Positions 634 to 42,743 of a DNA stretch of 64,000 nt are shown here, in pieces; the first letter of the stretch is position 1; each line of letters begins with the position of its first letter. The notes under the pieces are model-generated. The model saw only the letters and a program-made list of their open reading frames with translations, was not told the origin of the DNA and made no database searches. Made by a program: the position numbers and the translations under genes. Source of the stretch: Gemmatimonadales bacterium (lineage in GTDB: Bacteria > Gemmatimonadota > Gemmatimonadetes > Gemmatimonadales > GWC2-71-9); the NCBI GenBank assembly GCA_041390145.1, contig JAWKQM010000005.1:149901-213900 (forward strand), written 5' to 3'.

Positions 634-665
634 GCTGCCCCGCTGCCCCGCTTCCCCGCTTCCCC
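634..665. repeat. Tandem octamer array GCTGCCCC GCTGCCCC GCTTCCCC GCTTCCCC (4 copies)
   Basis: Four head-to-tail 8-mers read directly at 634-665, 22 nt upstream of the pccB-like ATG at 688. Confidence 0.9.
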
Positions 666-687
666 GCGTGACCGTACATTCCCTCGC

Positions 688-2241
688 ATGACCGACTCCC
701 GGAAGCGCCTCGACGAACTCCACCGCCGCCAGGCCGAGGCGGAGCAGGGTGGTGGTGCCCGCCGCATTGCCCAGCAGCACAAGAAGGGCAAGCTCACCGC
801 CCGCGAGCGGCTCGACCTCCTCCTCGACGAGGGGAGCTTTGTCGAGATCGACCGGTTCGTGACCCACCGCGCCACCGATTTCGGACTGGCCGACGAGATC
901 TACCTCGGTGACGGGGTCGTGACCGGCTCCGGGCGCATCGACGGACGGCTGGTCTACGTGTTCAGCCAGGACTTCACGGTGTTCGGTGGGTCGCTCTCCG
1001 AGACGCACGCCGCGAAGATCTGCAAGATCATGGACCTCGCCGTCCGGAACGGCGCGCCGATGATCGGGCTCAACGACTCGGGTGGTGCGCGCATCCAGGA
1101 GGGGGTCGTTTCCCTGGGGGGCTATGCCGACATCTTCCTCCGAAACACCCTCGCCTCCGGTGTCGTCCCCCAGATCTCCGCCATCCTGGGCCCCTGCGCC
1201 GGCGGCGCGGTGTACAGCCCCGCCATCACCGACTTCGTCCACATGGTCCGGGGCGTCAGCTACATGTTCGTCACCGGCCCCAACGTGGTGAAGACGGTCA
1301 CCCACGAGGACGTCTCGTTCGAGCAGCTCGGTGGCGCCGACATCCACGCCGGCACCTCGGGCGTGGCGCATTTCGTCCACGATTCCGAACCGCAGTGCCT
1401 GGCCGCCATCCGCGAGCTGATCGGGTTCCTCCCCAGCAACAACCTCGACCCGGCGCCGGTGCTGCCGACCACCGACCCCGAGGACCGGCGCGACGAGGCG
1501 CTCCTCGATGTCATCCCCGCCAACGCGACGCAGCCCTACGACATGCGCGACGTGATCCGGCGGGTGGTGGACGATACGATCTTCCACGAGGTGCACGGCG
1601 AATATGCCGGGAACCTGCTGGTGGGGTTCGCCCGACTCGGCGGAGAATCGGTGGGCATCGTCGCCAACCAGCCCGCCATGCTCGCCGGCGTGCTCGACAT
1701 CAACGCCTCGGTCAAGGGTGCCCGGTTCATCCGGTTCTGTGACGCCTTCAACATCCCACTCGTCACCTTTGAAGACGTCCCCGGCTTCCTGCCCGGGGTG
1801 GCCCAGGAGCACGGCGGAATCATCAAGCACGGCGCCAAGCTCCTCTACGCCTATTGCGAGGCGACGGTCCCCAAGCTGACCGTCATCACGCGAAAGGCCT
1901 ACGGGGGGGCCTACGACGTGATGAGTTCGAAGCACATCCGGGGCGACCTCAACCTCGCCTGGCCCACCGCGGAAATCGCGGTGATGGGGCCGAAGGGGGC
2001 GGTGGAGATCCTCTTCAAGGAACAGATTGCCAAGGCGGCTGATCCCGCCGCCGAGACGGCCCGCCTGATCGAGGAATACACCGAGAAGTTCGCCAACCCC
2101 TGGGGGGCGGCCGCCCGGGGCTACGTGGACGACGTGATCGACCCCCGGGATACGCGGCCGCGGCTGATCGACGGTCTGCGGGCCCTCCGGACCAAGCGGG
2201 ACCGGAATCCGGCGAAGAAGCACGGGTGTATCCCGCTCTGA
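688..2241 (+). CDS. pccB: Acyl-CoA (propionyl/methylmalonyl-CoA type) carboxylase, carboxyltransferase beta subunit
   Basis: [15 protein letters not shown]...[22 protein letters not shown]...[13 protein letters not shown]...[15 protein letters not shown]...AYGGAYDVM is typical of the PccB/MmdA carboxyltransferase family. The ORF-track start at 553 reads through the intergenic repeats, so the ATG at 688 is preferred. Confidence 0.9.
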
Positions 2242-2244
2242 CGA

Positions 2245-2406
2245 GCGGGGGCGGGGCAGCGGGGCAGGGAGGCAGTGGCGAGGATGCTCGTCATCCCGGC
2301 GAAAGCCGGGATCCATGTTATGGGACGGACAATGGACCCCGGCCTTCGCCGGGGTGACGTCGGGGTTGGGGCCGTCACGGCCCCGCTGCCCCGCAGCCCC
2401 GCCCCA
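2245..2406. repeat. Composite nested palindromic element: outer G-rich and C-rich octamer arms, inner inverted pair of GC stem-loops
   Basis: 2247-2275 (gggggcggggcagcggggcagggaggcag) is nearly complementary to 2381-2405 (ccccgctgccccgcagccccgcccc). Inside, cgtcatCCCGGCgaaaGCCGGGatcca (2289-2315) and its inverted copy tggaCCCCGGCcttcGCCGGGGtgacg (2333-2359) each fold into a hairpin. Confidence 0.85.
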
Positions 2407-2478
2407 CAAGGTGCCTCTGGCGAAACTCCGTACAGCGTCCCATCTTAGAGGCCTACCCCCGAACCACGATCTGGACAG

Positions 2479-3477
2479 GTGGCTGGCATGGTACGAGTGA
2501 TCCAACCCGAGCTGCGATCCCTGCTGGCGCTGACCCTCCTGGTGTCAGCGGCAACCGGGCCTGTGGTGGCGCAAGGGTCGCTCAACCCCACCGTGGCGCC
2601 GCGTGCCGCCGAGCTGGCCCGGAACGGGCAGCGGGGCATCGGCACCGAGATGCTCAGCCAGTACCTCGCCACCTCGCCCGACGACGGGTCGGCCTGGATT
2701 CAGCTCGGCCGGTTCTACCTCCTCGACATTCGCGATTGGCACCTCACTGGCCATCCGGCCGACTCTCCCGGGCCGCTGTACATCGACTTCGGATCCGCCG
2801 CCCTGGATCAGGCCGTCCGACTGCGCGGGGACTCCGGCGTCATCCTCCGACAGATGCTGGAGGTGGAGCGGGCGCTCGAGGCCGTCGAAGAGCAGGGCTA
2901 TCCGGTCCTCACGCACTGGGTGGTGCCACCGGATGTGGCCCCGTTGCCGGACTACATCACGGAACTCGGCGCGAATCTTCTGAGCAGCTGCCCGGCGTCG
3001 GGTGTCATGGCGACGGGCAGCGACCTGGAGACCGTCGCCATCTTCTCGGTGGTGGCCACCGCCGGCCAGGCCGCCAGCGTGGTGATCGTCGTGCCGTCGT
3101 ACTACGCCACCGATGCGCGGTATCGCAACCGGATCGCCTCGGCGCTCGGCACCGACTCCGCCTGGTCGGTTCAGCAGGCCCTGGCCAGCGTTGCCCAGCG
3201 TCGGCCGGTGTGCCTGACGCCCATGGCTGATCGCACCCTGCTCGCCCTCCCCAAGCTCCGGCCGATGCGGTTCGTGCTCGTTTCGGGCCCCGGCACGACC
3301 ACCAGCGACCGGGTGGTGACGGTCACTGATCTGGCCCGTGCCGACCGTCAGGGCAATTCCGCCTGGCTCCGCGAAGTCCACGCCGTGTATACCGCCGCCG
3401 CCGGATTCAATCCGCGCCTCTGCGACGGCCCGCTGGCCCTCCTGGGAGACACACAGATCGCCGCCTGCCGCCGCTAG
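2479..3477 (+). CDS. Hypothetical secreted protein (N-terminal signal-like segment, possible TPR-like helix pair)
   Basis: 332-aa ORF with a hydrophobic leader LLALTLLVSAATGPVVAQG. I recognise no family. It sits between the carboxyltransferase and biotin carboxylase genes. The start could be the ATG at 2488. Confidence 0.55.
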   Translation: MAGMVRVIQPELRSLLALTLLVSAATGPVVAQGSLNPTVAPRAAELARNGQRGIGTEMLSQYLATSPDDGSAWIQLGRFYLLDIRDWHLTGHPADSPGPLYIDFGSAALDQAVRLRGDSGVILRQMLEVERALEAVEEQGYPVLTHWVVPPDVAPLPDYITELGANLLSSCPASGVMATGSDLETVAIFSVVATAGQAASVVIVVPSYYATDARYRNRIASALGTDSAWSVQQALASVAQRRPVCLTPMADRTLLALPKLRPMRFVLVSGPGTTTSDRVVTVTDLARADRQGNSAWLREVHAVYTAAAGFNPRLCDGPLALLGDTQIAACRR

Positions 3478-3517
3478 GCGCCCGCCTCAGCGACCCGCCG
3501 TCCGCCATCCCACGCCC

Positions 3518-5020
3518 ATGACCCCCATCACTCGAGTCCTTGTCGCGAACCGCGGCGAAATCGCGTTGCGCATCATCCGCGCGTGCCACGAGGAAGGTCT
3601 CGAGGCGGTCGCCGTCTACTCCGCAGCCGATCGCCTCAGCCCGCATGTGCGCGCTTCCGACCTGGCGGTCGAGATCGGGCCGGCCGCGCCGTCGGAGAGC
3701 TACCTCCGGATTGACCGGTTGCTGGAAGTCGCCCGCGAGACGGGGGCGCAGGCAGTGCACCCCGGGTACGGGTTCCTCGCCGAGCGCGCCGCCTTTGCCG
3801 AAGCGGTGGAGCAGGCCGGCCTGGTGTTCATCGGGCCGCCCTCCACCGCCATCCGCGCCATGGGCGACAAGACGGAGGCGCGGCGCCGCATGCGCGCGGC
3901 CGGGGTGCCGGTGGTGCCGGGCGCCGACGCGCCGATCACCGAACTCGCGCCCGCCCTCGCGCTGGCGAGCCAGATGGGCTATCCGGTCATGGTCAAGGCG
4001 GCCGCCGGCGGCGGCGGGAAGGGGATGCGCGTCGTCCGCGCCGCCGAAGAACTCGAGGGCGCGCTGGCCACCGCCGCGTCGGAGGCGCTCAAGGCCTTCG
4101 GCGACGCGGGGGTCTACATCGAGAAGTTCATCGAGCGGCCGCGGCACGTGGAAATCCAGGTGCTCGCCGATGCGACGCGCACCGTGCACCTCGGCGAGCG
4201 GGAATGTTCCGTCCAGCGGCGCCACCAGAAGGTGCTCGAGGAGGCGCCGTCGGTGGCAGTCGATGCGGAGCTGCGTGAGCGGATGGGAGCCGCCGCGGTG
4301 GCCGCGGCGACCGCGGTGGGGTACCGGAGCGCGGGAACCTGCGAGTTCCTGCTCGCCGCCGACGGGTCGTTCTACTTCCTGGAGATGAACACCCGCATCC
4401 AGGTGGAGCATCCGGTCACCGAACTGGTGTACGGCATCGACCTGGTGCGGCAGCAGCTGCGCATCGCGCGCGGACTGCCGATGCAGGTGCCGGACGGCCC
4501 CCGCCATCCCAACGGGTGGGCGGTGGAATGCCGGATCACGAGCGAGGACCCCGGCAACGGATGGATGCCCTCGACCGGCCGGGTCGAGTTCCTTCGCGTG
4601 CCGTCGGGCCCCGGGGTGCGGTGGGACAGCGGTGTCGAGATCGGCAACGAGGTCACGCTCTACTACGACTCGATGGTGGCCAAGCTCATCGTCTGGGGCC
4701 GTGACAGGGAGAACGCGCTCCGCCGGATGGTGCGCGCGCTCGATGAACTGGTTGTCGTGGGCATCGCCACGAACCAGGGATTCCAGCGGCGGCTCGTGAC
4801 CGACCCCGCCTTCGTTGCCGGCGACATCGACATTCAGTTCCTCGATCGACGACCAGACCTGGCAGAGGCGCCCCCCAGCGCGGCCCTGACCCGCGCGGCC
4901 GCCATCGCCGCCGCGCTGGCCGAGGACGCCGCCCGCCATGCCCGGAAGCCGGCGATTGCCGAGTCGGGCGCCGCGCGCACCGCCTGGCTCGCGGCCGCGC
5001 GCGCTGAGGGGCTCCGCTGA
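3518..5020 (+). CDS. accC: Biotin carboxylase (ATP-grasp) subunit of an acyl-CoA carboxylase
   Basis: MTPITRVLVANRGEIALRIIRA...HPGYGFLAE...MVKAAAGGGGKGMRVV...EMNTRIQVEHPVTE are hallmark biotin-carboxylase motifs. ATG at 3518 is in frame with the longer ORF-track call. Confidence 0.92.
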   Translation: MTPITRVLVANRGEIALRIIRACHEEGLEAVAVYSAADRLSPHVRASDLAVEIGPAAPSESYLRIDRLLEVARETGAQAVHPGYGFLAERAAFAEAVEQAGLVFIGPPSTAIRAMGDKTEARRRMRAAGVPVVPGADAPITELAPALALASQMGYPVMVKAAAGGGGKGMRVVRAAEELEGALATAASEALKAFGDAGVYIEKFIERPRHVEIQVLADATRTVHLGERECSVQRRHQKVLEEAPSVAVDAELRERMGAAAVAAATAVGYRSAGTCEFLLAADGSFYFLEMNTRIQVEHPVTELVYGIDLVRQQLRIARGLPMQVPDGPRHPNGWAVECRITSEDPGNGWMPSTGRVEFLRVPSGPGVRWDSGVEIGNEVTLYYDSMVAKLIVWGRDRENALRRMVRALDELVVVGIATNQGFQRRLVTDPAFVAGDIDIQFLDRRPDLAEAPPSAALTRAAAIAAALAEDAARHARKPAIAESGAARTAWLAAARAEGLR

Positions 5021-6282
5021 CCGCCGAGGCCGCCGCACCCGTCAGGATTCTCCGGATCGCCTCCGGGGGCGACGGCGTCGGGAAGCTGGACGATGGACGA
5101 ACGGTCTTCGTGCCGCGGACGGCGGCCGGCGACCTCGTCACCCTGAAGCGGGTCAAGGTTGCCAAGACCTTCGCACGCGCCGAGGTGGACGTCGTTGTGG
5201 AGCCGTCGCCCGATCGGATCGAACCGGGCTGCCCGCACTATGTGCGGGACCAGTGTGGTGGTTGCCAGCTGCAGCATCTCGCGCTCCCCGCACAGCTGGC
5301 GGCGAAGCGCTCAATCGTGGGGGAAACACTCCGCCGCATCGGGAAGCTGGAGGTGGAGGATCCCGAGATCGAGCCGGCCGCCGCCGTCTGGGGCTATCGG
5401 AACAAGGTGACGCTGACCGTCTCCGACGCCGGTCGGCGGATCGGATTCCACCGGCAGGGGCGCGCGGGAGAAGTCTTCGACCTCGAGCGGTGCCTCATCG
5501 CCGATCCCGCGCTGATGGAGCTCTGGACCACCGTGCGGGAGCATCGCGCGCTCCTCCCCGAGCACGCCGAGCAGATCGTGCTTCGCCGGGACCGCGAGGG
5601 CGGACTCCACCTGATCGCGAAGGTCAGCGGGCAGACGGTGTGGCGCTCGGCGGCGCTCCTCCACGTGGCGCTGGTGCGCCGGGGGGTGCCGGCGGTGCTC
5701 TGGTGGGTGCCGGAAGAGGGAGCGCCACGGGCGGTCGCCGGCGCCGCGGAGCCATATCCCGCGGCCGTCTTCGAACAGGTGCACCCGGCCATGGGCGACC
5801 GGGTCCGGGCCTGGGCGCTCGAACAGCTGGGGCACTGGGAGGGGATGACCGCCTGGGACCTTTACGCCGGGGTGGGGGAGACCTCGGCCCTGCTGGTGGC
5901 TGGCGGCGCCACCGTCGAGAGCGTGGAGGTCGATGCGCGCGCGGTGGTCGAGGCAAACCGACGGGGACCGGACGAAGGGATTGAGCGGCACGCCGGGCGG
6001 GCGGAGGATATCGTGCCCCGGCTGCGGCCGGCGGGGCTGGTGGTCACCAACCCACCGAGGACCGGGATGGACGAACGGGTGACGGACGCGATCGCCGCGG
6101 CCCGCCCGAAGAAAATCGCCTACATCAGTTGCGACCCGGCCACCCTTGCACGGGACCTCGCACGATTGCTTCCCCGCGTCCCCGCTTCCCCGCCCATGCG
6201 CCTCGCCGCCCTGCGCGCCTTCGACCTCTTCCCACAGACGGCGCACGTCGAGACGGTGGCGATCCTGGAGAGTGACGGATGA
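5017..6282 (+). CDS. 23S rRNA (uracil-5-)-methyltransferase, RumA/RlmD family (TRAM + Fe-S Cys cluster + SAM MTase)
   Basis: [16 protein letters not shown], then [10 protein letters not shown] and VVTNPPRTG (SAM-MTase motifs), then [13 protein letters not shown]...[10 protein letters not shown]. The TRAM-like strand [25 protein letters not shown] is in frame upstream of the first canonical start (GTG 5110), so CTG 5017 is proposed as the start (see findings). Confidence 0.8.
6168..6191. repeat. Three tandem octamers (GCTTCCCC GCGTCCCC GCTTCCCC) inside the methyltransferase CDS
   Basis: Read directly. 24 nt, in frame, encoding LPRVPASP between the conserved ATLARDL and [10 protein letters not shown] blocks. 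Confidence 0.85.
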
Positions 6283-6815
6283 AGTATTTCGTGTCGGTGG
6301 GGGGCGTGCAGGTGGAGGTGGCCGTCGAGCCCGACGGCATCCGGGTGGATGGCGAGCTGGTGGACGCGGCGCTGGAGCCACTCGCCGGCACGCCGCTCCA
6401 GCAGCTCCGGATGGGGGAGCGCACGCTGGTCTTTTCCATCGATCCCCGCGAGCGCGGGGAGTGGGAGCTTGGTTATCGTGGCGAGCGGTGGACGGCCTCG
6501 GTCGTGGACGAGCGTACCCGGCATATCCGGAGCCTCACCGGCGAGGGTCGGCAGCGGGTGGGGGCAGGGGAGGTCAAGGCGCCGATGCCGGGGTTGGTGC
6601 TCCGGGTCCTGGTGGAGCCGGGGCAGCGGGTGGAGGCGGGGGCGGGGCTGGCGGTCCTGGAGGCCATGAAGATGGAGAACCAGATCAAGGCCCCCGCGGC
6701 CGGGGTGGTCGAGGCGGTCCGGGTCGAGGCCGGGAAGGCGGTCGAGAAGGGGCAGGTGCTGGTGGTACTGGCCGCCCCGCCAGCGCCCGGCCCGGCCGGG
6801 GATGGGGTGGCTTGA
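6279..6815 (+). CDS. Biotin carboxyl carrier / biotinyl-domain protein with an N-terminal extension
   Basis: C-terminal biotinyl domain with VKAPMPG...[16 protein letters not shown]...G (the AMKM biotinylation motif). Its start overlaps the upstream stop (ATGA). Confidence 0.85.
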
Positions 6816-6884
6816 CCAGAGCCGATATTCCCGGCTATCTTACGGGTCTGTGTCGATTTACCCGTTTTCAGGGAACTGGCAGGA

Positions 6885-7349
6885 ATGACAATGAAGACCT
6901 TTAGCGCGACGCCGAGCGACATCCACCACGAGTGGCTGATCGTTGACGCCCAGGACGTGCCGCTCGGCCGGTTGGCCAGCACGGTGGCGCAGCTCATCCG
7001 GGGCAAGCACAAGCCGACGTACACGCCGCACATGGATGTCGGCGACTTCGTCATCGTCATCAACGCCGAGAAGGTCCGCCTGACGGGCAAGAAGCTCGAC
7101 GGCAAGACCTACTTCAAGTACACCGGGTACATGGGCCACGAAACCCACACGACCGCCCGGAACCTGATGGCCAAGCACCCTGACCGGGTCATTGAGAAGG
7201 CCGTCTTCGGCATGCTGCCGAAGACCTCGCTCGCCAAGCAGCACCTGCGCGGCAAGCTCAAGGTGTACGCCGGCGCGGAGCACCCGCACGCGGCGCAGCA
7301 GCCCAAGCCCTTTACGATTCAGTCCAGCACCCAGAAGGTGAGCGCATGA
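6885..7349 (+). CDS. rplM: 50S ribosomal protein L13
   Basis: MKTFSATPSDIHHEWLIVDAQDVPLGRLAS..IRGKHKPTYTPHMDVGDFVIVINAEK is the canonical L13 sequence. Confidence 0.95.
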   Translation: MTMKTFSATPSDIHHEWLIVDAQDVPLGRLASTVAQLIRGKHKPTYTPHMDVGDFVIVINAEKVRLTGKKLDGKTYFKYTGYMGHETHTTARNLMAKHPDRVIEKAVFGMLPKTSLAKQHLRGKLKVYAGAEHPHAAQQPKPFTIQSSTQKVSA

Positions 7350-7747
7350 CGGCTTCTCCCGAATTCCGGTGGCAGGCAGTGGGTCGCCGCAAGACCAGCG
7401 TCGCCCGCGTGTACCTGACGCCCGGCACTGGCAAGTGGGACATCAACGGCCGCACGCTCGGCGACTACTTCCCCCGGCCCTCGCTGGTGCAGCACATCCA
7501 GCAGTCGTTCACGGCCACGGACACCCTCGGCGCCTTTGACGTTCGCGCCCATGTGGACGGTGGCGGGCAGGCGGGCCAGGCAGGCGCGCTTCGGCACGGC
7601 ATCGCGCGGGCGCTGGTGGAGGCCGACGGTCTGCACCGGGCCAAGCTGCGGGCCGCCGGGCTCCTGACGCGCGACCCGCGCGCCGTGGAGCGGAAGAAGC
7701 CAGGCCGTCCGGGCGCCCGGAAGCGGTTCCAGTTCAGCAAGCGGTAG
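7346..7747 (+). CDS. rpsI: 30S ribosomal protein S9
   Basis: GRRKTSVARVYL..G.G...ING...YF and the C-terminal RKKPGRPGARKRFQFSKR are canonical S9. Overlaps the rplM stop. Confidence 0.95.
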   Translation: MTASPEFRWQAVGRRKTSVARVYLTPGTGKWDINGRTLGDYFPRPSLVQHIQQSFTATDTLGAFDVRAHVDGGGQAGQAGALRHGIARALVEADGLHRAKLRAAGLLTRDPRAVERKKPGRPGARKRFQFSKR

Positions 7748-7875
7748 CAGCAGGCGGCCGACCGGCCGCCATCCTCCACATCGCCGGATTCCGACCCGGG
7801 TGCCCCCAGGGGTCAGGTTGGAAGACGAAGGCGGTGGTCGGACAACCCTCATAACTGAAGGATCGACGAACTCGC

Positions 7876-8781
7876 ATGGCACAGCCCGCACTGCAGGACC
7901 TGCTCGAAGCCGGCGTTCACTTCGGCCACCAGACCCGTCGGTGGAACCCGAAGATGCGCCGTTTCATCTTCGCCGAACGCTCCGGCATCTACATCATCGA
8001 CCTGCAGAAGACCCTCCGGCAGATCATCAAGGCCCAGGAGCTCCTCCGCACCGTCGTCCTCAAGGGCGACAGCGTCCTCTTCGTGTGCACCAAGCGGCAG
8101 CTCAAGGCCGTGGTGCAGGCCGAGGCGACCGAGAGCGGCGGGCACTACGTCACGGAGCGGTGGCTGGGCGGCATGCTCACCAACTTCCAGACGGTCAAGA
8201 AGCAGATCCGGCGGCTGAAGGACCTCGAGCAGGGGGCCTCGGACGGCGAGTTCGAGAGCTACACCAAGAAGGAAAAGCTGCTCTTCGAGCGGGAGCGCGT
8301 GAAGCTGTCGCGCAACCTCGAGGGCATCAAGAACATGGCCCGGCTGCCCGGCGCGCTCTTCGTGGTGGACGCCAAGAAGGAAAAGATTGCGGTCGCCGAG
8401 GCCAACAAGCTCGGGATCCCGGTGGTGGCCATCGTGGACACCAACGCCGACCCCGACGTGATCACCGTGCCGATCCCGGGCAACGACGACGCCATCCGCG
8501 CCGTCGCCCTGATCACGCATGCGCTGGCGGACACGATCGCCGAAGCCCGCGCCCAGATGCCGGCGCGTGACGCGGCCGACGCCGACGACGCCGAGACGTA
8601 CAGCACCGACTCCGGCACCGAAGGCGACGCCGACGCGGACCGAAAGAAGCGCCGGGCCCGCCGGAAGCGCCGGCCGAAGCCCGAGGCGATCGCCGCGCGG
8701 CTCAAGGGGGAGTCGGAGACGGCGGATTCGGGGGAGGCCGAGGCGGCTGCCCCGGCTGCCGCGGCAGAGTCGGACGCCTAG
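7876..8781 (+). CDS. rpsB: 30S ribosomal protein S2 with a charged C-terminal extension
   Basis: LLEAGVHFGHQTRRWNPKM..FIF..R.GIYIIDLQKT is canonical S2. About 70 extra C-terminal residues are rich in D/E/K/R/A. Confidence 0.95.
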   Translation: MAQPALQDLLEAGVHFGHQTRRWNPKMRRFIFAERSGIYIIDLQKTLRQIIKAQELLRTVVLKGDSVLFVCTKRQLKAVVQAEATESGGHYVTERWLGGMLTNFQTVKKQIRRLKDLEQGASDGEFESYTKKEKLLFERERVKLSRNLEGIKNMARLPGALFVVDAKKEKIAVAEANKLGIPVVAIVDTNADPDVITVPIPGNDDAIRAVALITHALADTIAEARAQMPARDAADADDAETYSTDSGTEGDADADRKKRRARRKRRPKPEAIAARLKGESETADSGEAEAAAPAAAAESDA

Positions 8782-8805
8782 TCCGGCCCCTGCGGGATCC
8801 TGCGT

Positions 8806-8845
8806 GCCGCCGCCCCCGGCCTCCAACCGGCCTGGGCGGCGGTTT
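8806..8845 (+). terminator. GC-rich hairpin followed by TTT between rpsB and tsf (attenuator/terminator-like)
   Basis: gccgccgcccccggcc ... ggcctgggcggcgg pair imperfectly and are followed by tttc. Confidence 0.4.
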
Positions 8846-8877
8846 CACTATCCAACACTACCTGTGAGTATTCAGCC

Positions 8878-10750: not shown

Positions 10751-10754
10751 CGGC

Positions 10755-14828: not shown

Positions 14829-14910
14829 GTTGTTGTGCAGGATTGGCTTGCGGATTTCTCGGCCGTGGGCCATCGATTCGGGGGCCCGGGCCGGGAAGTG
14901 GCCCAACCCC

Positions 14911-14939
14911 TTGTCACGCCGTAACTAGCGGGTTATTTT
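14911..14939 (+). promoter_or_regulatory. Candidate sigma-70-type promoter upstream of rpsO (TTGTCA-17 nt-TATTTT)
   Basis: TTGTCA at 14911-14916, a 17-nt spacer, then TATTTT at 14934-14939, about 70 nt upstream of the rpsO ATG. Pattern match only. Confidence 0.35.
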
Positions 14940-15006
14940 TCTGTGCTTGGAAGAATCGTTAATTGACAGACGTTGCCCGAGCGGGCACCCAACGGAAACC
15001 GACAGA

Positions 15007-15267: not shown

Positions 15268-15282
15268 CTGAAGCCCGTGGGC

Positions 15283-15320
15283 GAGGGCGTCCCGACCGAG
15301 CACGACGGGACGCCCTCTTT
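15283..15320 (+). terminator. Perfect 12-bp stem hairpin plus T-run between rpsO and pnp (terminator/attenuator, possible processing site)
   Basis: GAGGGCGTCCCG (15283-15294) and CGGGACGCCCTC (15305-15316) are perfectly complementary and followed by TTTG. Confidence 0.7.
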
Positions 15321-15323
15321 GCA

Positions 15324-26053: not shown

Positions 26054-26920
26054 ATGGCCTGGTTCAAGAAAGAGCGAAAGCCCCGGACTCCGGTCCGCGA
26101 GCGTCGCGAGGTTCCCGCCGATGCCTGGGAGAAGTGTGACGAATGCGGTCACATGGACATCCGGGACAAGTTCGAGCGCGCCCTCAACGTCTGTCCCGAG
26201 TGCGGCAAGCACCGCCGGATCAGCGCGGAGGAGTACATCGAGCTGTTGACGGACGAGGGCTCCTGGCGCGAGCTGTGGGGAAACCTCCGGTCGGAAGACC
26301 CGCTCCACTTCGAGTCGTACCCCGAGCGCCTCACCAAGGCGATTGAGAAGGCCGGGCCGGCGGACGCCATTTACACCGGCATCGGGCAACTGGACGGGCT
26401 CGCCTATTATCTGGGCGTCATGAACTTCGCCTTCATGGGCGGGTCGATGGGCTCGGTGGTCGGAGAGAAGATCGCCCGCCTCGCCCGGCGCGCGCTGCGG
26501 AAGAAGCGCCCCCTGGTCTTGGTCTGTGCCTCGGGCGGTGCCCGCATGCAGGAGGGGGTCTATTCCCTCATGCAGATGGCCAAGACCAGCGCGGCGCTGG
26601 CCCAGCTCGGCCTGCACGGCATTCCCTTCATCACCATCCTGACCGACCCCACGACCGGCGGCGTGTCGGCGTCATACGCCATGCAGGGCGACGTGATTCT
26701 CGCCGAACCAGGGGCGCTCATCGGGTTTGCCGGCCAGCGGGTGATCAAGCAGACTATTGGACAGGACCTGCCGGAAGGATTCCAGACCGCAGAGTTCCTG
26801 CTGGATCATGGGCAGGTCGACGACGTGGTCCCGCGCGGATCACTGCGGGACACCACCGCCCGACTCCTCCGGCACATGCAGGGCGCGCGGGCACGCTACG
26901 AAGCGGCCGACGCCGTCTAG
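26054..26920 (+). CDS. accD: Acetyl-CoA carboxylase carboxyltransferase beta subunit (Zn-ribbon N-terminus)
   Basis: W.KC..CG......L...L.VCP.CG.H.RI.A..R Zn-ribbon, then FMGGSMGSVVGEK and SGGARMQEG. Confidence 0.93.
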   Translation: MAWFKKERKPRTPVRERREVPADAWEKCDECGHMDIRDKFERALNVCPECGKHRRISAEEYIELLTDEGSWRELWGNLRSEDPLHFESYPERLTKAIEKAGPADAIYTGIGQLDGLAYYLGVMNFAFMGGSMGSVVGEKIARLARRALRKKRPLVLVCASGGARMQEGVYSLMQMAKTSAALAQLGLHGIPFITILTDPTTGGVSASYAMQGDVILAEPGALIGFAGQRVIKQTIGQDLPEGFQTAEFLLDHGQVDDVVPRGSLRDTTARLLRHMQGARARYEAADAV

Positions 26921-26934
26921 CCCCCGCGAAGACT

Positions 26935-27034
26935 CACACGAAGACACGAAGCCACGAAATCATGGAGAAAGCTCAACGCGAGATCGCTCCCATGGCTCGT
27001 CTCACTCACCTTCGTGCCTTCGTGTCTTCGTGTG
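26935..27034. repeat. ~100-nt hairpin element whose arms are tandem CACGAAG-type octamers
   Basis: The left arm cacacgaagacacgaagccacgaa (26935-26958) matches the reverse complement of the right arm ttcgtgccttcgtgtcttcgtgtg (27011-27034) at 23 of 24 positions. An inner CATGGAG/CTCCCATG pair is also present. It lies between the accD stop and the folC start. Confidence 0.9.
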
Positions 27035-27053
27035 AAGCTGTCAACGTGATGCC

Positions 27054-28345: not shown

Positions 28346-31134
<2,789 letters not shown>

Positions 31135-31138
31135 TGGC

Positions 31139-31170
31139 GGGGCAGGGGGGCAGGGTGGCAGCGGGGCAGG
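31139..31170. repeat. Tandem octamer array GGGGCAGG GGGGCAGG GTGGCAGC GGGGCAGG (opposite orientation of the GCTGCCCC family)
   Basis: Read directly between the proS stop (31132-31134) and the preferred lysA ATG (31194). At least four G-runs of 3 or more lie on the sense strand. Confidence 0.9.
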
Positions 31171-31193
31171 CCGCCCTGCTGCAGGACGCGGGG

Positions 31194-32465: not shown

Positions 32466-32477
32466 GGAATCAGCGGA

Positions 32478-34037: not shown

Positions 34038-34041
34038 GGGG

Positions 34042-34494: not shown

Positions 34495-34576
34495 GACGGG
34501 GAAGCTAATCCCCGCCCGGAACGCGTGTCAAATCCCTATCATTGCTCGGTTTAGCCCACGGCCGTATTTTGTGGGC

Positions 34577-35560: not shown

Positions 35561-36315
35561 CCCCCGAGCGGCTGGCTGCACTGCTGGCAAGCGTCGCCGC
35601 CGGCACGATCACGCCGGCGCTGGCGCTCGAGCAGTTGCGCAATTTCCCCGCCGAACAACTTCCGTTCGCCAGCATCGATCACCATCGCACCCTGCGGCAG
35701 GGACAGCCGGAGGTGATCTTCTGCGCCGGCAAGACGGTGGAGCAGGTGGTGGCCATCGCCGAGCGACTGACCGCCGTGTCGGGCAGCTTCCTGGGCACGC
35801 GCGCGACCGATGAACAGGCGGAGGCGCTCCGGAACGTCTTCCCCGGGCTTGAGTGGAATGCCCCGGCGCGGACGGTGTTCTTGCCGAAGGAGCCCCGTCC
35901 GGAACCGACGGGGATGGGCACGGTGCTCGTGGTGTGTGCCGGCACCAGCGACCTGCCGGTGGCGGAGGAGGCGGCGGTGGTGGCCGAGGCGTTCGGCAAC
36001 CGGGTGGAACGGATGGTGGACGTGGGAGTGGCGGGCATCCACCGGTTGATGGCGCAGGGCGACCGGCTGCGGGAAGCGGCAGTCGTCATCGTCGTGGCGG
36101 GCATGGAAGGCGCCTTGCCAAGCGTCGTCGGAGGATTGGTTCGGGTGCCCGTGATCGCGGTGCCGACCAGCGTCGGGTACGGGGCGGCGTTCGGCGGAAT
36201 CGCCGCGCTGCTCGGGATGCTGAACAGCTGTGCGGCCGGAGTGACCGTGGTGAACATCGACAACGGTTTCGGCGCGGCCGCGGCGGCCACGCGCATCAAC
36301 CACCGGGCGCCGTGA
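35557..36315 (+). CDS. larB: PurE-like NCAIR-mutase-related protein, LarB family (pyridinium-3,5-biscarboxylic acid mononucleotide synthase-like)
   Basis: The N-terminal helical part plus AGTSDLPVAEEA...GVAGIHRL...VVAGMEGALPSVVGGL...PVIAVPTSVGYG...NIDNGFGAA matches the LarB/PurE-related fold. Overlaps the dusB stop. Confidence 0.7.
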   Translation: MTPERLAALLASVAAGTITPALALEQLRNFPAEQLPFASIDHHRTLRQGQPEVIFCAGKTVEQVVAIAERLTAVSGSFLGTRATDEQAEALRNVFPGLEWNAPARTVFLPKEPRPEPTGMGTVLVVCAGTSDLPVAEEAAVVAEAFGNRVERMVDVGVAGIHRLMAQGDRLREAAVVIVVAGMEGALPSVVGGLVRVPVIAVPTSVGYGAAFGGIAALLGMLNSCAAGVTVVNIDNGFGAAAAATRINHRAP

Positions 36316-37748: not shown

Positions 37749-37873
37749 TCGGTTTATCTTGTTGTTCACCAAGGGGGTACCCAGTCGAAGCTCGGTGTCT
37801 TACCGTTCCCGCAGTGGCGGCCCATACCACTTAGCCGGGCTGCCAAACAAGGGTTCACCCCGGAGGTAAGGTT

Positions 37874-38473
37874 ATGCGCGCCGCACGCTCGTCATTCGCC
37901 GCTTCGCTTCTGCTCCCTGCCGCCCTCCTGACCACCGCGGCATGCTCCAAGGGCATGTCGGGCACGACAACCGAATCAATGGTCGCCACACCGACCGGTG
38001 GCTATGCCGTGGAAACATTCACTACCACGGCGACGGTGACCTCGATCGCCAAGTCGAACCAGAAAGTCACGCTGCAGACGGCGGACGGGAAGAAGACCAC
38101 CTTCAAGGCCGATTCCCAGATGGTGGACTACGCCAAGCTCCGGGTCGGTGACAAGGTAGATGCCGTCGTGACCGAGGAGCTTGCCGTCGCCCTGTGGAAG
38201 GGGAACAATCCCCCCCCCGACGCCGTGGGCGGTCTGGTTGGGCTGACCCCTGCCGGCCAGCAGACCAGCAGCGTCATGGTGGCCACCGTGCGGATGACCG
38301 GCACCATCACGGCAATGGATATCAAGAAGCGGAAGGTGACCTTCCAGTTCGAGGACGGCAGCACCAAGACCATCAAGGTGGACAAGAGCGTAAACCTGTC
38401 CAATGCGGCGGTGGGCGACCGAGTGACGGTCGTGGTCACTGAGGCGGCGGCCCTCACGGTTACAAAGCAGTAG
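37874..38473 (+). CDS. Probable lipoprotein with an internally duplicated ~55-aa beta-rich module
   Basis: GGAGG RBS 8 nt upstream. Signal peptide ending LLTTAAC|S. TATVTSIAKSNQKVTLQTADGKKTTFKAD...VGDKVDAVVTE is repeated as TGTITAMDIKKRKVTFQFEDGSTKTIKVD...VGDRVTVVVTE. Confidence 0.65.
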   Translation: MRAARSSFAASLLLPAALLTTAACSKGMSGTTTESMVATPTGGYAVETFTTTATVTSIAKSNQKVTLQTADGKKTTFKADSQMVDYAKLRVGDKVDAVVTEELAVALWKGNNPPPDAVGGLVGLTPAGQQTSSVMVATVRMTGTITAMDIKKRKVTFQFEDGSTKTIKVDKSVNLSNAAVGDRVTVVVTEAAALTVTKQ

Positions 38474-38502
38474 CTCAACTCACCAATTGAAAGGCAGCGC
38501 CC

Positions 38503-39324
38503 ATGCGTAGCAGATTCTTCACCGCGGTCCTGGTGCTGGCCCTCCCAGGGCTCCTCTCCGCGCAGGCAGAACCGACCAAGGCGGAGGCCGAAGCCAAGGC
38601 CACGGAACTGGCCAAGGCGGCCCAGAACCCTGTGGCGAACATGAATTCGATCCCGGTGCAGTTCAACTGGACCACCGGCGGCGGGCTCGGTGACGAGACC
38701 CAGTCCGTGGTCAATGTCCAGCCGGTGCTCCCGCTGCCGATCAACGAGAAGTGGAACCTCATTTCCCGCACCGTGGTGCCGTTCGTCAGCCTGCCGGCCG
38801 GCGGCATCGACCGGGTGACGGGCATCGCCGACATCCAGGAACAGATCTACCTGACGCCGACCAAGTCCAAGGGCGCCGTCTGGGGCTTCGGCCCGATCTT
38901 CTCCTTCCCGACCGCGACCAACGCCGCCGTCTCGACGGGGCAGTACGCCATGGGGCCGACGTTCGTGGTGCTTAAGATCGGGAAGAAGTGGGTCTACGGA
39001 TTCGTGGCGAACCAGTTGTGGCGCATCGCGGGCAGCGAGGATACCCAGGCCATCAACTCGTTCTTCGTGCAGCCGTTCATCAACTACAACCTGAAGCGGG
39101 GCTGGGCGATCACCACCGCGCCGGCCATCACCGCCAACTGGGATGCCCCGAGCGGGCAGGTGTGGACGGTGCCGCTCGGGATCGGCGTGTCCAAGATCAC
39201 GATGGTGGGCAAGCAGCCGCTCAACATCGCCATGCAGTACTACGCCAATGTCGAACGGCCGGACAACGCGGGGTCCTCCCTGATCCGGATGCAATTCACG
39301 CTGCTGTATCCCAAAGGGATGTAG
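38503..39324 (+). CDS. Outer-membrane beta-barrel protein (MetA/TodX-like 'transporter' family resemblance)
   Basis: Signal peptide ...LPGLLSAQA. Alternating beta-strand pattern. The terminal ...RMQFTLLYPKGM has an aromatic residue near the C-terminus. The family assignment is from memory only. Confidence 0.6.
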   Translation: MRSRFFTAVLVLALPGLLSAQAEPTKAEAEAKATELAKAAQNPVANMNSIPVQFNWTTGGGLGDETQSVVNVQPVLPLPINEKWNLISRTVVPFVSLPAGGIDRVTGIADIQEQIYLTPTKSKGAVWGFGPIFSFPTATNAAVSTGQYAMGPTFVVLKIGKKWVYGFVANQLWRIAGSEDTQAINSFFVQPFINYNLKRGWAITTAPAITANWDAPSGQVWTVPLGIGVSKITMVGKQPLNIAMQYYANVERPDNAGSSLIRMQFTLLYPKGM

Positions 39325-39338
39325 GCACCCCATTGAAG

Positions 39339-39413
39339 TCACGAAGGCGCGAAATCACGATAGCACGAAAGAAGCGCTGACGTTCGTGTTTTCGTGATTT
39401 CGTGTTTTCGTGG
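39339..39413. repeat. Second CACGAA-family hairpin element
   Basis: tcacgaaggcgcgaaatcacgatagcacgaa (left) matches the reverse complement of cgttcgtgttttcgtgatttcgtgttttcgtgg (right) at about 25 of 30 positions. It starts 15 nt after the OMP stop. Confidence 0.85.
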
Positions 39414-39440
39414 CCCTTGGGGTAGGGGAGCACGCGCACA

Positions 39441-39469
39441 TTGCTCAACTGCCACAAAAAGTGTATCAT
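39441..39469 (+). promoter_or_regulatory. Candidate ssrA promoter (TTGCTC-17 nt-TATCAT)
   Basis: TTGCTC at 39441-39446, a 17-nt spacer, then TATCAT at 39464-39469, 14 nt before the mature tmRNA 5' end. Pattern match only. Confidence 0.4.
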
Positions 39470-39483
39470 TATGACACACCCAA

Positions 39484-39844
39484 GGGGGCGATCGGCTTCG
39501 ACGGGTTGGAAGAAGGAATTGCTGCGTGCCCAGGTCCGAGTCCCTGGCTAAACCACTTGGAAACAACCAAACGCCAACGATAACCTGGCGCTGGCTGCGT
39601 AAGCTGAGCTAAGCTCGCTTGACGCACCTCCGGTTCGCTGAGCCCGCCCGGGGCGCGGTGGGTCGGATCGAAAATCCGGGCTGGCCGAGCGCGGTCCTCC
39701 GACGCGCAAGGCGAGACATCAGGAGGTAGTCCCCAGAGCGGCCGATTCCTTGCCGGGCTGGGGAGACGCATGAAGAGGGATCTACGCACGTAGATGCGGT
39801 TCTGGAACCACACTCGGACCAGGGTTCGATTCCCTGCGCCTCCA
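39484..39844 (+). ncRNA. ssrA: tmRNA (SsrA), one-piece, tag ANDNLALAA
   Basis: The 5' GGGGGCG pairs with the 3' CGCCTCC, including a G3:U wobble. GGCTTCGACGGG follows the 5' end. The T-arm is CAGGGTTCGATTCCCTG with discriminator A at 39844 and no encoded CCA. The tag ORF GCC AAC GAT AAC CTG GCG CTG GCT GCG TAA is at 39573-39602. Confidence 0.93.
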
Positions 39845-40085
39845 CTACCACCGGCCGCTGGAGACTGGACTTCATGCCCAGGTGCTCCCGGGGCCGTGTT
39901 GGTTTCCTAACAGTTACCTCATGATCCCTTCAGCCCCGATGTGTAACTTTTGGGTTAAAGCTGCAGGTTTTTGCCGCCTATGGCACTGGACTTCGCCAAG
40001 AGCGGTGGTATTCTTTTGTGTTGTTCATGGGAGGAGCGAGGTTGCCCCTCCAGCACACTCCGCCCCCGATTCGCAGGAGCATCTG

Positions 40086-42616
40086 ATGGTTCACACCAAG
40101 CACTTCTGGCGATTCTTCCTTTCGCTGGTCGCGGTCGGCGCATTCGGCGCGCTGCCGGCGTCGGCGCAGGTCGTCACCGGCAAGCCCGGCTCACCGGGTG
40201 CGACCACCACCATCGACGGCAAGCAGCTCCCGGCTCCCCAGCCGAAGTTCGGCGGCGTCATCAAGGACGACGCGCTGCAGTCCACGCCGTGGTGGGCGCC
40301 GCGTATCGTGCCCCCGAAGGCCGCCCCGAACGTCCTGCTCATCATCACCGATGACGCCGGCTTTGCCGTGCCCAGCACCTTCGGCGGCGTGATCCCGACG
40401 CCGACGATGGACCGGATCGCCAACGAGGGGCTCCGCTACAACCGGATGTTCTCGACGGCGCTCTGCTCCCCGACCCGCGCCGCGCTGATTACCGGCCGGA
40501 ACCACCACTCGGCCGGTTTCGGGGTCATTTCCGAGCAGTCGACCGGCTACCCCGGGTACAACAGCATCATCGGCCAGGATGAGGCCACCATCGGGCGGAT
40601 CCTGCAGGACAACGGCTACGCCACCGCCTGGTTCGGGAAGGACCACAACACCCCGGCGTTCGCCGCCAGCCAGGTCGGCCCGTTCGATCAGTGGCCCACC
40701 GGCCTCGGGTTCCAGTACTTCTACGGCTTCGTCGGGGGCGACGCCAACCAGTGGGAGCCCAACCTCTTCCGGAATACGACGCAGATCTTCCCCTTCCGGG
40801 GCAAGGAGGGCACCTGGAACCTGATCACGGGCATGGCGGACGACGCCATCGACTGGATCTACCGGATGCACCAGACCGACCCGAGCAAGCCGATCTTCAT
40901 CAAGTACGCGCCCGGCGCCACCCACGCGCCGCACCACCCCACGAAGGAGTGGGTGGACAGCGTCCAGAAGCTGCACCTCTTCGACAAGGGCTACGAGGCG
41001 CTGCGCCAGCAGATCTTCGCTAACCAGAAGAAGATGGGCATCGTGCCCCAGGACGCCATCCTCACCCCGTGGCCGGACTCGGTCCTCACGCCGTGGAACA
41101 AGCTGGACCCGATGGCGAAGAAGCTCTTCATCCGGCAGGTGGAGATCTTCGCCGCCTACGCGATGTACAGCGACTACGAGATCGGCCGCGTCATCAAGGC
41201 ATTCGATGACATCGGCCGGGGCGACAACACGATGGTCATCTACATCAACGGGGACAACGGGACGAGCGCCGAGGGCGGTCCGCTCGGCACCCCGAACGAG
41301 GTGGCGTTCTTCAACGGGATGAACGAGATCCCGGTCGATGTCCAGATGAAGTGGTACGACGTCTGGGGCACCCAGGAAACCTACAACCACATGTCGGCGG
41401 GATGGTCCTGGGCGTTCGACACACCCTTCGACTGGTTCAAGCAGAACGCCTCACGGCTCGGCGGGATCAACCAGAACATGGTCATCTCCTGGCCCGGGCA
41501 CATCGCCGAGACCGGTGGAATCCGGAACCAGTTCACCCACGTGATCGACGTCGCACCGACGATCCTCGAAGCGGCCGGCATTCCTGCGCCGGACTACGTG
41601 GACGGCATCAAGCAGCGGCCGATCGAGGGCACGAGCTTCGCCTACACCTTCGCCGCCAACGCCGCGAATGCCCCTTCCCGTCACACCACGCAGTACTTCG
41701 AGATGATGGGGCAGTGGGCGCTCTGGAAGGACGGCTGGCTCCTCAGCACCAAGGTCAACCGGGTGCCGTGGGACGCCTTCTCCAAGGCCAACCCCGATCC
41801 GCTCAACAACCAGGTCTTCCAGCTCTATGACATGAGCAACGACTGGAACCAGGCGACGGACGTGGCGGCCAAGTACCCCGACAAGGTCGCCCAGATGCGG
41901 AAGGACTTCGTGGAGGAAGCCAAGAAGTACCAGGTCTTCCCGCTCGACGCCTCGGTGGCGGCCCGCATCGTGGCGCCGCGGCCGAACATCACCGCGGGTC
42001 GGACGGAGTTCGTCTATACCCATCCAATGACCGGGACGCCGCAGGGTGACTCGCCGCTCCTCCTCAACACCAGCTACACCGTGACGGCGGACATCACCGT
42101 GCCCCAGGGCGGCGCCGAGGGCATCATGCTCACCTCCGGTGGCCGGTTCGGCGGGTACGGGTTCTACCTCCTCAAGGGCAAGCCGGTCTGGGTCTGGAAC
42201 ATGGTGGACCTCGAGCGTATCAAGTGGGAAGGGCCGACGGCCCTCACGCCCGGGCGGCACACCGTCGAATTCGACTTTGTCTACGACGGCACCGGGCGCC
42301 AGCACCCTCGCGTACAACAGCTCTCGGGCGTCGAGGCGGAGTCGGGCTGCCAGCACGCTCAAGGTCGACGGCCAGGTGGTCGCCACCAAGAAGATGGAGA
42401 AGACCCTCCCCGCCCAGTCCTTCAGTGGGACGGAAGCGCTTCGAACATCGATTTCCTGTTTCCGAGACCGGCGTGGACGATGCCGACTACCACCCGCCCT
42501 TCACATTCACGGGGACGCTCGACAAGCTCACCCTCAAGCTCGACCGGCCGCAGCTCTCGCCGGCCGACATCAGAAAGATCAAGGATGCCGAGGCCAAGGC
42601 GGCGGACAACAAGTAG
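40086..42616 (+). pseudogene. Arylsulfatase (formylglycine-type, CSPTR motif) whose last ~330 bp switch among all three reading frames
   Basis: Signal peptide MVHTKHFWRFFLSLVAVGAFGALPASAQ. Active-site block LCSPTRAALITGRNHH. Family-typical C-terminal pieces are split between frames (…FDFVYDGTG / GASTLAYNS / LSGVEAESG / ASTLKVDGQVVATKKMEKTLPAQ / LQWDG / …FPVSETGVDDADYHPPFTFTGTLDKLTLKLDRPQLSPADIRKIKDAEAKAADNK*). Confidence 0.85.
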
Positions 42617-42650
42617 TCCCGCACCCGCACGCGCGGCTTCACTGAACGAC

Positions 42651-42674
42651 GGGGCAACCGGTGTCGGTTGCCCC
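42651..42674. terminator. Perfect 10-bp GC hairpin (GGGGCAACCG gtgt CGGTTGCCCC) between the convergent sulfatase and purE genes
   Basis: Read directly. There is no T-run on either side, so it could be a bidirectional stem-loop or RNA-stability element. Confidence 0.5.
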
Positions 42675-42711
42675 CGTGTACGTACGCGCGGATTCCGATT
42701 CTCTTGCCCCC

Positions 42712-42743
42712 GCTGCCCCGCTGCCCCGCTGCCCCGCTGCCCC
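42712..42743. repeat. Four perfect tandem GCTGCCCC octamers
   Basis: Read directly at 42712-42743, preceded by a degenerate copy (ttgccccc). It lies 25 nt from the purE stop codon on the opposite strand. Confidence 0.92.

Follow-up and report, generated by a model that had tools for sequence, protein, structure and literature searches.

What are the short octamer arrays that recur along a 64,000-nucleotide stretch of a Gemmatimonadales genome, and why do most of them sit at the ends of genes? The stretch, hereafter the window (NCBI GenBank assembly GCA_041390145.1, contig JAWKQM010000005.1, positions 149,901 to 213,900, forward strand), carries six head-to-tail arrays of a unit that reads GGGG[C/A]AGC on one strand and GCT[G/T]CCCC on the other, at window positions 634-665, 2247-2275, 2381-2405, 6168-6191, 31139-31170 and 42712-42743. 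A preliminary description had treated them as one dispersed family, and we find all six at the coordinates it gave, with Tandem Repeats Finder (TRF) reporting a period-8 array at each locus. The two-unit pattern GCTKCCCCGCTKCCCC (up to two mismatches) matches the window 15 times against 0.89 matches expected from dinucleotide-preserving shuffles, and none of 100 shuffles reaches 15; 14 of the 15 matches fall within the six loci, the remaining one (2625-2640) being weak and inside a coding sequence (CDS). The flanking genes are as previously named, a PccB-type carboxyltransferase (688-2241), an RlmD-type methyltransferase (5110-6282) and ProRS (29689-31134), together with LysA, a sulfatase-domain open reading frame (ORF) and PurE, which is on the minus strand and ends at 42768. 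Five of the six arrays do lie at gene boundaries, the exception being 6168-6191, within the RNA methyltransferase CDS. The window has a G+C content of 66-71% and is about 93% coding-like by a mask based on G+C at third codon positions (GC3), so that the presence of five arrays in the few percent of non-coding DNA is improbable in itself.

We scanned a three-unit pattern against one genome per species in 185,579 species and found at least 120 loci. Among the matches listed, 93 are in metagenome-assembled genomes (MAGs) of Gemmatimonadota, the products of many different projects and assemblers, a single MAG contributing as many as 8 loci, and the other 27 are single occurrences in unrelated high-GC genomes, from which we draw nothing, as they are single, of mixed context and, in high-GC Actinobacteria, surrounded by long ORFs throughout. 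Among 2.9 million viral contigs only 3 contain the pattern. The best matches of the window's methyltransferase and ProRS (84-93% identity) are likewise in Gemmatimonadales MAGs, and the closest PccB relative in the metagenome scan, at locus L121, is 81% identical; an exact search for the window's own PccB protein gave no record. In 197 kb from nine related genomes, unselected because it was anchored on proteins, tandem repeats most often have period 8 (24 arrays; period 9 has 15, period 6 has 11 and period 7 has 1), and a stop codon stands within 30 nt 5' of the purine-rich strand in 6 arrays and of the pyrimidine-rich strand in 0. A literature search (16-mers, Gemmatimonas with repeat, Gemmatimonadetes with G-quadruplex) returned nothing relevant, in line with the earlier failure to match the arrays to a named repeat family, and Rfam 15 at its gathering threshold has a transfer-messenger RNA (tmRNA) at 39484-39847 as its sole match in the window. 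The octamer arrays are apparently an undescribed short tandem repeat family specific to Gemmatimonadales.

The restriction to one lineage, a fixed polarity and an anchoring to stop codons are the most informative features of the family, and all three go beyond the preliminary description. Placement was analysed for about 140 arrays from the Gemmatimonadota loci listed in the scan. Only 5 of the 134 arrays clear of locus ends are clearly intragenic, showing coding signal and an uninterrupted frame to either side, so the enrichment at gene boundaries extends to related genomes. When two arrays lie less than 400 nt apart, a G-rich array is followed by a C-rich one 30 times and the reverse order is seen 2 times; as the G-then-C arrangement is its own reverse complement, the G-rich array is met first on either strand. 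Read in the sense direction of the upstream gene, 34 of 41 stop-adjacent G-rich arrays begin no more than 10 nt past the stop, 14 of the 41 at exactly 2 nt ('TAG gc GGGGCAGC...'), whereas none of the 20 C-rich arrays that follow a stop is within 10 nt of it, and none is nearer than 11 nt. C-rich arrays stand 3-130 nt upstream of the next start. The preferred offset is also visible using no gene calls, with a stop triplet exactly 2 nt before a G-oriented array in 29 of 145 arrays and in about 1-13 at other offsets. Each of the eight convergent spacers that were classified has its array abutting one stop, with G polarity for that gene, and TRF places the purine-rich arm ahead of the pyrimidine-rich one in 27 of the 28 pairs of the family and in 5 of 6 built from other units.

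The choice of stop codon at these sites was also recorded. At the exact 2-nt offset the stops are TAG in 18 cases, TAA in 6 and TGA in 2, TGA making up 54% of stops overall (loci L001-L120), and TAGGC is the most frequent 5-mer before an array, the commonest outer flanks being TAGGC, GAGGC and GCGGC. A general enrichment of TAG beside arrays was considered and discarded as not significant (18 of 36 vs 129 of 358), TAG already accounting for 37% of stops and only the 2-nt offset being rich in TAG and TAA. A census of spacer types (tandem, convergent, divergent) was set aside as too crude, its 'divergent' gaps being long and probably hiding small genes.

The arrays of the window follow the same rules. 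The G-rich arm at 2242..2280 (plus strand) comes directly after the pccB TGA (2239-2241), its core of 2247-2275 starting 5 nt past the stop, and the C-rich arm at 2373..2405 (plus strand, core 2381-2405) forms the opposite arm of that spacer, with the next gene 74-92 nt downstream. A lone G-rich array of four degenerate units at 31139..31170 (plus strand) follows the proS TGA (31132-31134) by 4 nt. At 42712..42743 a lone, perfect fourfold array lies between convergent genes (TRF extent 42708-42745, 4.8 copies) and, read on the minus strand in the sense of purE, is G-rich, (GGGGCAGC)4 GGGGG, 24 nt past the purE stop (42768-42770). The C-rich array (GCTGCCCC)2(GCTTCCCC)2 at 634..665 (plus strand) ends 22 nt before the pccB ATG (688), and is thus placed upstream of pccB as 2381-2405 is upstream of the gene that follows it.

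It had been suggested that the facing arrays at 2247 and 2381 could form a long hairpin, and the predicted folding agrees: 2239-2412 folds at −123.8 kcal/mol (z = −7.8), with the two arrays (33 nt, 85% complementary) as the 5' and 3' arms of an outer stem, inside which a REP-like (repetitive extragenic palindromic) inverted pair, CGTCATCCCGGCGAAAGCCGGGATCCAT / ATGGACCCCGGCCTTCGCCGGGGTGACG at 2289..2359 (plus strand), is nested. In the window and in the syntenic loci of three related MAGs (L201-L203), the spacers at the pccB junctions are each predicted to fold into one nested hairpin closed by a G-rich and a C-rich array (z from −5.5 to −9.5). Upstream of pccB, the 634-665 array has the position of the 3' arm of such an outer pair, and it is probably the surviving arm, its G-rich partner having decayed to GCGGCACCTGGGGTCGG. 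The putative remnant, GCGGCACCTGGGGTCGGCAAG at 484..503 (plus strand), lies right after the TAG (481-483) of the S1-domain gene and pairs weakly with 634-665; a G-rich array is present in the corresponding S1-to-pccB spacers of L201, L202 and L203, within a few nucleotides of a TAG in L201 and L203. Nested between the two, at 504..619 (plus strand), is a hairpin of another periodic unit (−98 kcal/mol, z = −8.0), with a purine-rich arm of GGGAGGGTCGGA type (504-557) and a pyrimidine-rich arm of TCCGACCCTCCC type (564-619), which has a homologous hairpin in L202. The lone arrays of the window have no Watson-Crick structure of their own (z from +0.6 to +2.3; +0.76 for 634-665). No complementary arm was found near 42712-42743, and 31139-31170 has a weak local hairpin in competition with a G-quadruplex (G4).

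The same architecture is built from other units. The three other-unit pairs of the window all fold strongly (z from −5.9 to −8.9). Besides 504-619 they comprise (CACGAAGA)3 / (TCTTCGTG)3 at 26934..27035 (plus strand, 96% complementary, z = −5.9), whose first arm begins about 13 nt after an accD-like TAG (26918-26920) and whose second ends about 19 nt before the next gene, and CACGAARN/TTCGTGNT at 39340..39412 (plus strand, z = −8.9), between a gene that ends at 39324 and the tmRNA gene. The 26934-27035 hairpin is present in the related loci L204 and L206 and absent in L205, and in L207 (83% ProRS identity) the accD junction has instead a heptamer array, (GRTCAGG)n, directly after a TAG (2255-2300). 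At L121, the sequence upstream of pccB has GGACGGTA/CCTACCGT arms and that downstream reads 'TGA tc (GGAGGCAA)3 ... (TCCTTGCC)4'; as the unit differs on both sides of each pair, both arms have changed together. The purine arms hold GGGG, GGAGG or AGGA cores. What is conserved is the design, namely periodic arms of 7-8 nt, purine-rich first and anchored to a stop, and not the sequence. Elsewhere, a heptamer, (GGGGCTA)x11, was noticed inside a G-then-C pair at L108 (4061-4150).

Two arrays of the window touch coding sequence. The 24 in-frame nucleotides at 6168..6191 (plus strand, GCTTCCCC GCGTCCCC GCTTCCCC) encode LPRVPASP in a loop of the RlmD-type methyltransferase; this segment is an insertion of 6-7 residues relative to homologues at 58-60% identity, and homologues of about 67% identity or more conserve it at the protein level; the underlying DNA is period-8 in all four related genomes, with the unit drifting. 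The array at 31139-31170 had been assigned to a proS-lysA spacer and proposed as an element of the lysA 5' leader. It is G-rich in the sense direction and follows the proS stop, as described, but it is probably not pure spacer, overlapping the coding start of lysA instead. Within TGATG (31132-31136; lysA ATG 31133-31135) the stop of proS overlaps the start of lysA, a start that the gene callers of related contigs likewise adopt, and the lysA ORF traverses the array in frame, the conserved LysA motif LLxDAG following directly and a distant relative differing by synonymous changes. The array would thus provide either about 12 N-terminal residues of LysA or the ribosome-binding region for an in-frame internal GTG, and in both cases it cannot be a strong terminator.

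Across related genomes, the position of the arrays persists and their sequence turns over. At the pccB junctions, arrays occupy the same position in genomes with methyltransferases 80-84% identical, and their units, copy numbers and nested inserts differ; overall, arrays are found at orthologous junctions among genomes with 80-93% protein identity, with interiors that turn over. The orthologous pccB 3' arrays of L201 and L202 begin 'TAG gc GGGG'. The array-free spacers of the same region (BCCP-L13, S9-S2, S2-tsf and S15-pnp leaders) are almost invariant. At the proS junction, L204 and L206 (93% ProRS identity) have the array, L205 (87%) has a decayed version of it, and L207 (83%) has none. The entire module between pccB and the following hypothetical gene (G-rich arm, REP-like pair, C-rich arm) is absent in L203 (about 7290-7320 vs window 2225-2430), where the pccB stop is restored only after a 1-nt correction. 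Where the module is present, a gene-end sequence, GGTGC..CTCT[AG][AG]CGA, recurs as an imperfect direct repeat on both sides of it, and the difference could be a deletion between these repeats or an insertion with duplication in the other genomes; we treat it as a special case from which we do not generalise.

The earlier suggestion of a mobile repeat finds no support in these comparisons. In 39 G-then-C pairs searched for target-site duplications, the longest common substring of the flanks is at most 6 nt, no better than in mismatched controls, the interiors are unrelated between loci, and blastn of the window against the loci returns only the REP-like inner element. A transposon-like origin is unsupported because neither a general target-site duplication nor a conserved interior is seen, both of which mark a miniature inverted-repeat transposable element (MITE), and we set a mobile element or MITE aside on these grounds; the persistence of position across species also speaks against mobility. 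Clustered regularly interspaced short palindromic repeats (CRISPR) are excluded as well, the 8-nt units being contiguous and without spacers.

We tentatively read the arrays, with a probability of about 0.45, as RNA 3'-end structures of the upstream cistron that resemble REP elements and the short tandemly repeated repetitive (STRR) sequences of cyanobacteria, a role that we infer, as we do the mode of origin, from their anatomy. A transcript from either strand would run into the G-rich arm before the C-rich one, which lies at the spacer's far edge, and where both are present they would form the outer stem of a large nested RNA hairpin around the REP-like and other-unit hairpins. Such hairpins could block 3'-to-5' exonucleases and/or offer double-stranded processing sites, and the arrays may perhaps assist a U-tract-independent termination, so that the upstream cistron would be stabilised or delimited, as by REP elements and bacterial interspersed mosaic elements (BIMEs) of E. 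coli and as has been suggested for the cyanobacterial STRR hairpins. The structure starts within the footprint of a ribosome on the stop codon, and it could therefore couple to translation termination. Lone G-rich arrays would be survivors of decayed pairs, or would form a G4 in place of the hairpin. The arrays probably owe their origin and turnover to slippage, in which a 7-8 nt hairpin arm is duplicated in tandem and complementarity between the arms is maintained; as an origin, slippage (or an arm duplication that the opposite arm follows) would be the simplest. Precedents exist for parts of this scheme: the 7-bp STRR repeats form hairpins between hupS and hupL, for which transcript stability or translational coupling has been suggested (PMC2670836), and REPs less than 16 nt from a stop codon cause ribosome stalling and lower expression (PMC12306157). 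For the purine-first polarity we found no published model that explains it.

Several observations weigh against this reading. A partner search based on minimum free energy proved uninformative, as every G-rich array pairs with something in its GC-rich flanks, and a complement search with an upstream control took its place; it finds a complementary arm within 400 nt for only 10-12 of 32 stop-adjacent G-rich arrays (0 of 32 in the upstream control), so the hairpin cannot account for most of them, about two thirds having no recognisable partner. The copy numbers of the two arms are uncorrelated and sometimes very unequal (e.g. 3 vs 12-13). In favour of pairing, the arms covary in unit variant (27 C/C, 9 A/A and 5 mixed pairs; Fisher p = 3e-5), a pattern that genome-specific unit usage may partly produce. 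A T-run or U-tract after the C-rich arms was looked for in the G-then-C pairs and none was found, with loops of 22-300 nt, and a scan of positions 1-8000 with a terminator consensus gives 4 sites vs 2.6 expected, none of them at arrays. For several G-rich arrays the next co-directional start is under 30 nt downstream, and one array probably falls in the lysA coding start, placements that are incompatible with strong termination. Arrays are decayed or lost within about 85% protein identity (L205, L207, L203), from which the constraint on any single array must be weak. In addition, the gene boundaries rest on our own GC3-based ORF calls, a heuristic and not a trained gene finder, and many of the MAGs are likely long-read assemblies, judging by their contig naming, in which G-runs are error-prone.

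The main rival, which we consider rather unlikely, is that the arrays are non-adaptive products of slippage or hairpin-arm duplication whose position and polarity reflect purifying selection alone, for example if G-rich Shine-Dalgarno-like runs or G4s were harmful in 5' leaders and C-rich runs resembling Rho utilisation (rut) sites were harmful after stops. In its favour are the fast turnover (arrays decayed or absent at 83-87% protein identity), the variable copy number with arms that can be very unequal, the many different units with periods of 7 and 8, the two thirds of stop-adjacent G-rich arrays that have no partner, and the tolerance of an array within a loop of one CDS and probably at the 5' end of another. 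Duplication, however, inserts units and does not shift an array towards a gene, so that the mode at 2 nt and the 34 vs 0 cases within 10 nt of a stop need more than tolerance; the same junctions also regain arrays of unrelated units in different lineages, and the two arms remain complementary. A G4, formed in RNA or in the non-template DNA after the stop, might alternatively be the functional unit, providing 3' protection or a polymerase pause or termination, with the C-rich arm secondary. The G4 pattern seen in the preliminary description is present in all six arrays, each of which matches the canonical motif of at least four G-runs with a |G4Hunter| score of 1.88-2.44, and they make up 6 of the 14 canonical G4 motifs of the window; moreover, the strand that is sense after stops is the G-rich one, most stop-adjacent arrays have no pairing partner, and for the purE 3' array a four-tetrad RNA G4 is predicted at −39.6 kcal/mol vs −18.0 kcal/mol without it, the predicted gain at 31139-31170 being marginal. 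G4 capacity is nevertheless not the common denominator, because CACGAAGA, GGAGGCAA, GGACGGTA and GAGGACT units cannot form G4s and yet build the same architecture with the same polarity. Where arrays are paired, no G4 comes close to the stability of the hairpin, lone C-rich arrays upstream of genes such as 634-665 could form one on the antisense strand only, and some three-unit arrays have only three G-runs. We therefore regard the G4 as a property of the GGGG[C/A]AGC unit and a candidate mechanism for lone G-rich arrays, and find it quite improbable as the function of the family.

Two further alternatives act at translation or on DNA. In the one, which we think very unlikely, the array would stall termination or tether the ribosome for re-initiation, with the pyrimidine-rich arm as an unstructured leader. 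It would fit the start of 34 of 41 G-rich arrays inside the ribosome footprint, the REP precedent within 15 nt of a stop (PMC12306157), the coupling suggested for STRR (PMC2670836), the GGGG, GGAGG or AGGA cores of the purine arms, the TGATG overlap of proS and lysA with an array immediately downstream, and the conserved pccB leader that follows the C-rich arm without an obvious Shine-Dalgarno sequence; but arrays are also seen behind the stops of convergent genes, purE among them, where no cistron lies downstream. In the other, the least probable of those considered, the arrays would act as R-loops that block transcription from either side, as cruciform or recombination sites, or as binding sites of a lineage-specific protein. 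The symmetric polarity, by which the first array yields purine-rich RNA whichever strand is transcribed, and its maintenance across unrelated units as a compositional property are compatible with an action on DNA, whereas the several unrelated units per genome argue against a single sequence-specific binding protein, and G-rich arrays also lie between close co-directional genes that are probably co-transcribed.

A more general form of the proposed 3'-end role can be drawn, although we consider it unlikely, mechanism included. Pyrimidine-rich RNA hybridises weakly to a purine-rich template, and one may speculate that this makes the purine-first order favourable for displacement of the RNA without a U-tract. 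After release of the ribosome, the naked purine-rich RNA would pair with the weakly hybridised pyrimidine-rich arm, or would form a G4, ending or delimiting the transcript in either direction, and the 7-8 nt unit, derived from a duplicated hairpin arm, would be close to the length of the RNA:DNA hybrid. Stop-anchored, purine-first arrays might then mark gene ends generally in Gemmatimonadota, independently of a U-tract, and perhaps supply the logic behind STRR-type repeats in other organisms.

Compared with known systems, the arrays resemble STRR and REP elements without being members of either, and they are neither intrinsic terminators nor MITEs. Like STRRs, they consist of a few to about a dozen short head-to-tail units at many intergenic sites, and inverted arrays can form intercistronic hairpins, as at hupS-hupL; the function of STRRs is still unknown (PMC2670836), and heptamer repeats also occur near starts in Nostoc (bioRxiv 10.1101/2022.06.06.494920). 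STRRs are, however, heptanucleotide repeats of named types in heterocystous cyanobacteria, whereas the Gemmatimonadales unit is mainly of 8 nt (with few 7-nt arrays), GC-rich and unrelated in sequence, and belongs to another phylum. Stop anchoring and purine-first polarity, as far as we could find, are not described for STRRs. With REP elements and BIMEs the arrays share the high copy number, the extragenic location biased to 3' ends and the nested or alternating mosaics of palindromes. Roles proposed for these elements include mRNA stabilisation and termination (PMC2817692, PMC3733652), REPs nearer than 16 nt to a stop act on translation of the gene before it (PMC12306157), and one of these accounts gives a GTAG or CGTC tetranucleotide at one end of the REP (PMC3733652). 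That tag is absent from the unit GGGG[C/A]AGC / GCT[G/T]CCCC, and a REP is a single imperfect palindrome of 20-40 nt, whereas each array arm is a tandem array that is non-palindromic alone and has its partner 22-300 nt away. True REP-like hairpins (GTCATCCCGGCGAAAGCCGGGATCC) coexist with the arrays as separate inner elements. Rho-independent terminators (the arrays had been suggested as possible terminators) likewise place a GC-rich hairpin soon after a stop and can be symmetric between convergent genes (at L026 the order is stop, G-rich arm, loop, C-rich arm, stop). The canonical intrinsic type is nonetheless contradicted, as the paired arrays have no U- or A-tract, their arms are 22-300 nt apart where a short loop measures 3-8 nt (although the interior is itself folded), many arrays are unpaired, and some are within probable operons. 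As for the canonical G4, (G3+N1-7)4, all six arrays of the window match it, but the capacity is specific to the unit and is missing in sister arrays with the same placement. The novelty relative to all of these lies in the host lineage, the 8-nt period, the anchoring at stop codons and a polarity that is fixed.

Gemmatimonadota abound in soil, yet to our knowledge there is almost no molecular genetics for them, and we know of no account of how their transcripts end. A lineage-specific, high-copy element that stands a fixed few bases past stops, in a single orientation, makes a concrete candidate signal, of a non-canonical kind, for gene ends or mRNA stability. The arrays also offer a second, independent example of the STRR phenomenon, and the stop-anchoring and purine-first rules can be checked in cyanobacteria. 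On the practical side, MAG annotations fuse neighbouring genes across the stop-free arrays, whose G-runs are also prone to error when assembled from long reads. In public gene calls the S1-domain gene is joined to pccB (819 aa) and pccB is prolonged to 705 aa across the spacers with arrays (L202 4228-6687; L203 5757-7874), and stop-free arrays, possibly with indels in their G-runs, appear to corrupt MAG annotation in this way. In the window, the long sulfatase-domain ORF (39882-42749, plus strand) extends as far as 42749 only for want of a stop codon in the array, all frames of which are open. Its coding signal stops near 42300 and resumes in another frame (ORF 42224-42616), the end of the ORF being one of three things, a frameshift, a pseudogene or a small overlapping gene, and a hairpin with a 9-bp stem (42651-42676) precedes the 42712-42743 array.

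Further features were noticed beside the arrays. The tmRNA (ssrA) gene at 39484-39847 (plus strand; Rfam RF00023, 136.8 bits, full length) is directly preceded by the 39340-39412 hairpin. In the pccB leader, positions 666-687, past the C-rich arm, hold the conserved motif CCGTACATTCC, which is also found in the L201 and L202 orthologues. The spacers at 6816-6884, 7748-7875, 8782-8877 and 15268-15323 are near-identical in four genomes whose proteins are 80-84% identical; these BCCP-L13, S9-S2, S2-tsf and S15-pnp spacers are likely leader RNAs of ribosomal-protein genes or pnp, and have no Rfam match at the gathering threshold. A separate family of REP-like palindromes, GTCA[T/C]CCCGGCG[A/C]AAGCCGGG[A/G]TCC, occurs as inverted pairs nested in or beside octamer arrays in several Gemmatimonadales MAGs (window 2289-2359, L015 2976-3044, L119 6777-6845, and in L060, L201 and L202), the exact motif being within 110 nt of 13 of 139 arrays. 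At three loci (L008 6810-7224, L104 1689-2107 and L091 4374-4746), a small gene lies between a G-rich array of 3-7 units and a C-rich array of up to 13 units. By eye this gene resembles a Phd/YefM antitoxin and has a palindromic, promoter-like sequence, TACGTTTTGTACATATTGTACG, and the C-rich arrays of L008 (12 units) and L104 (13 units) are among the longest observed.

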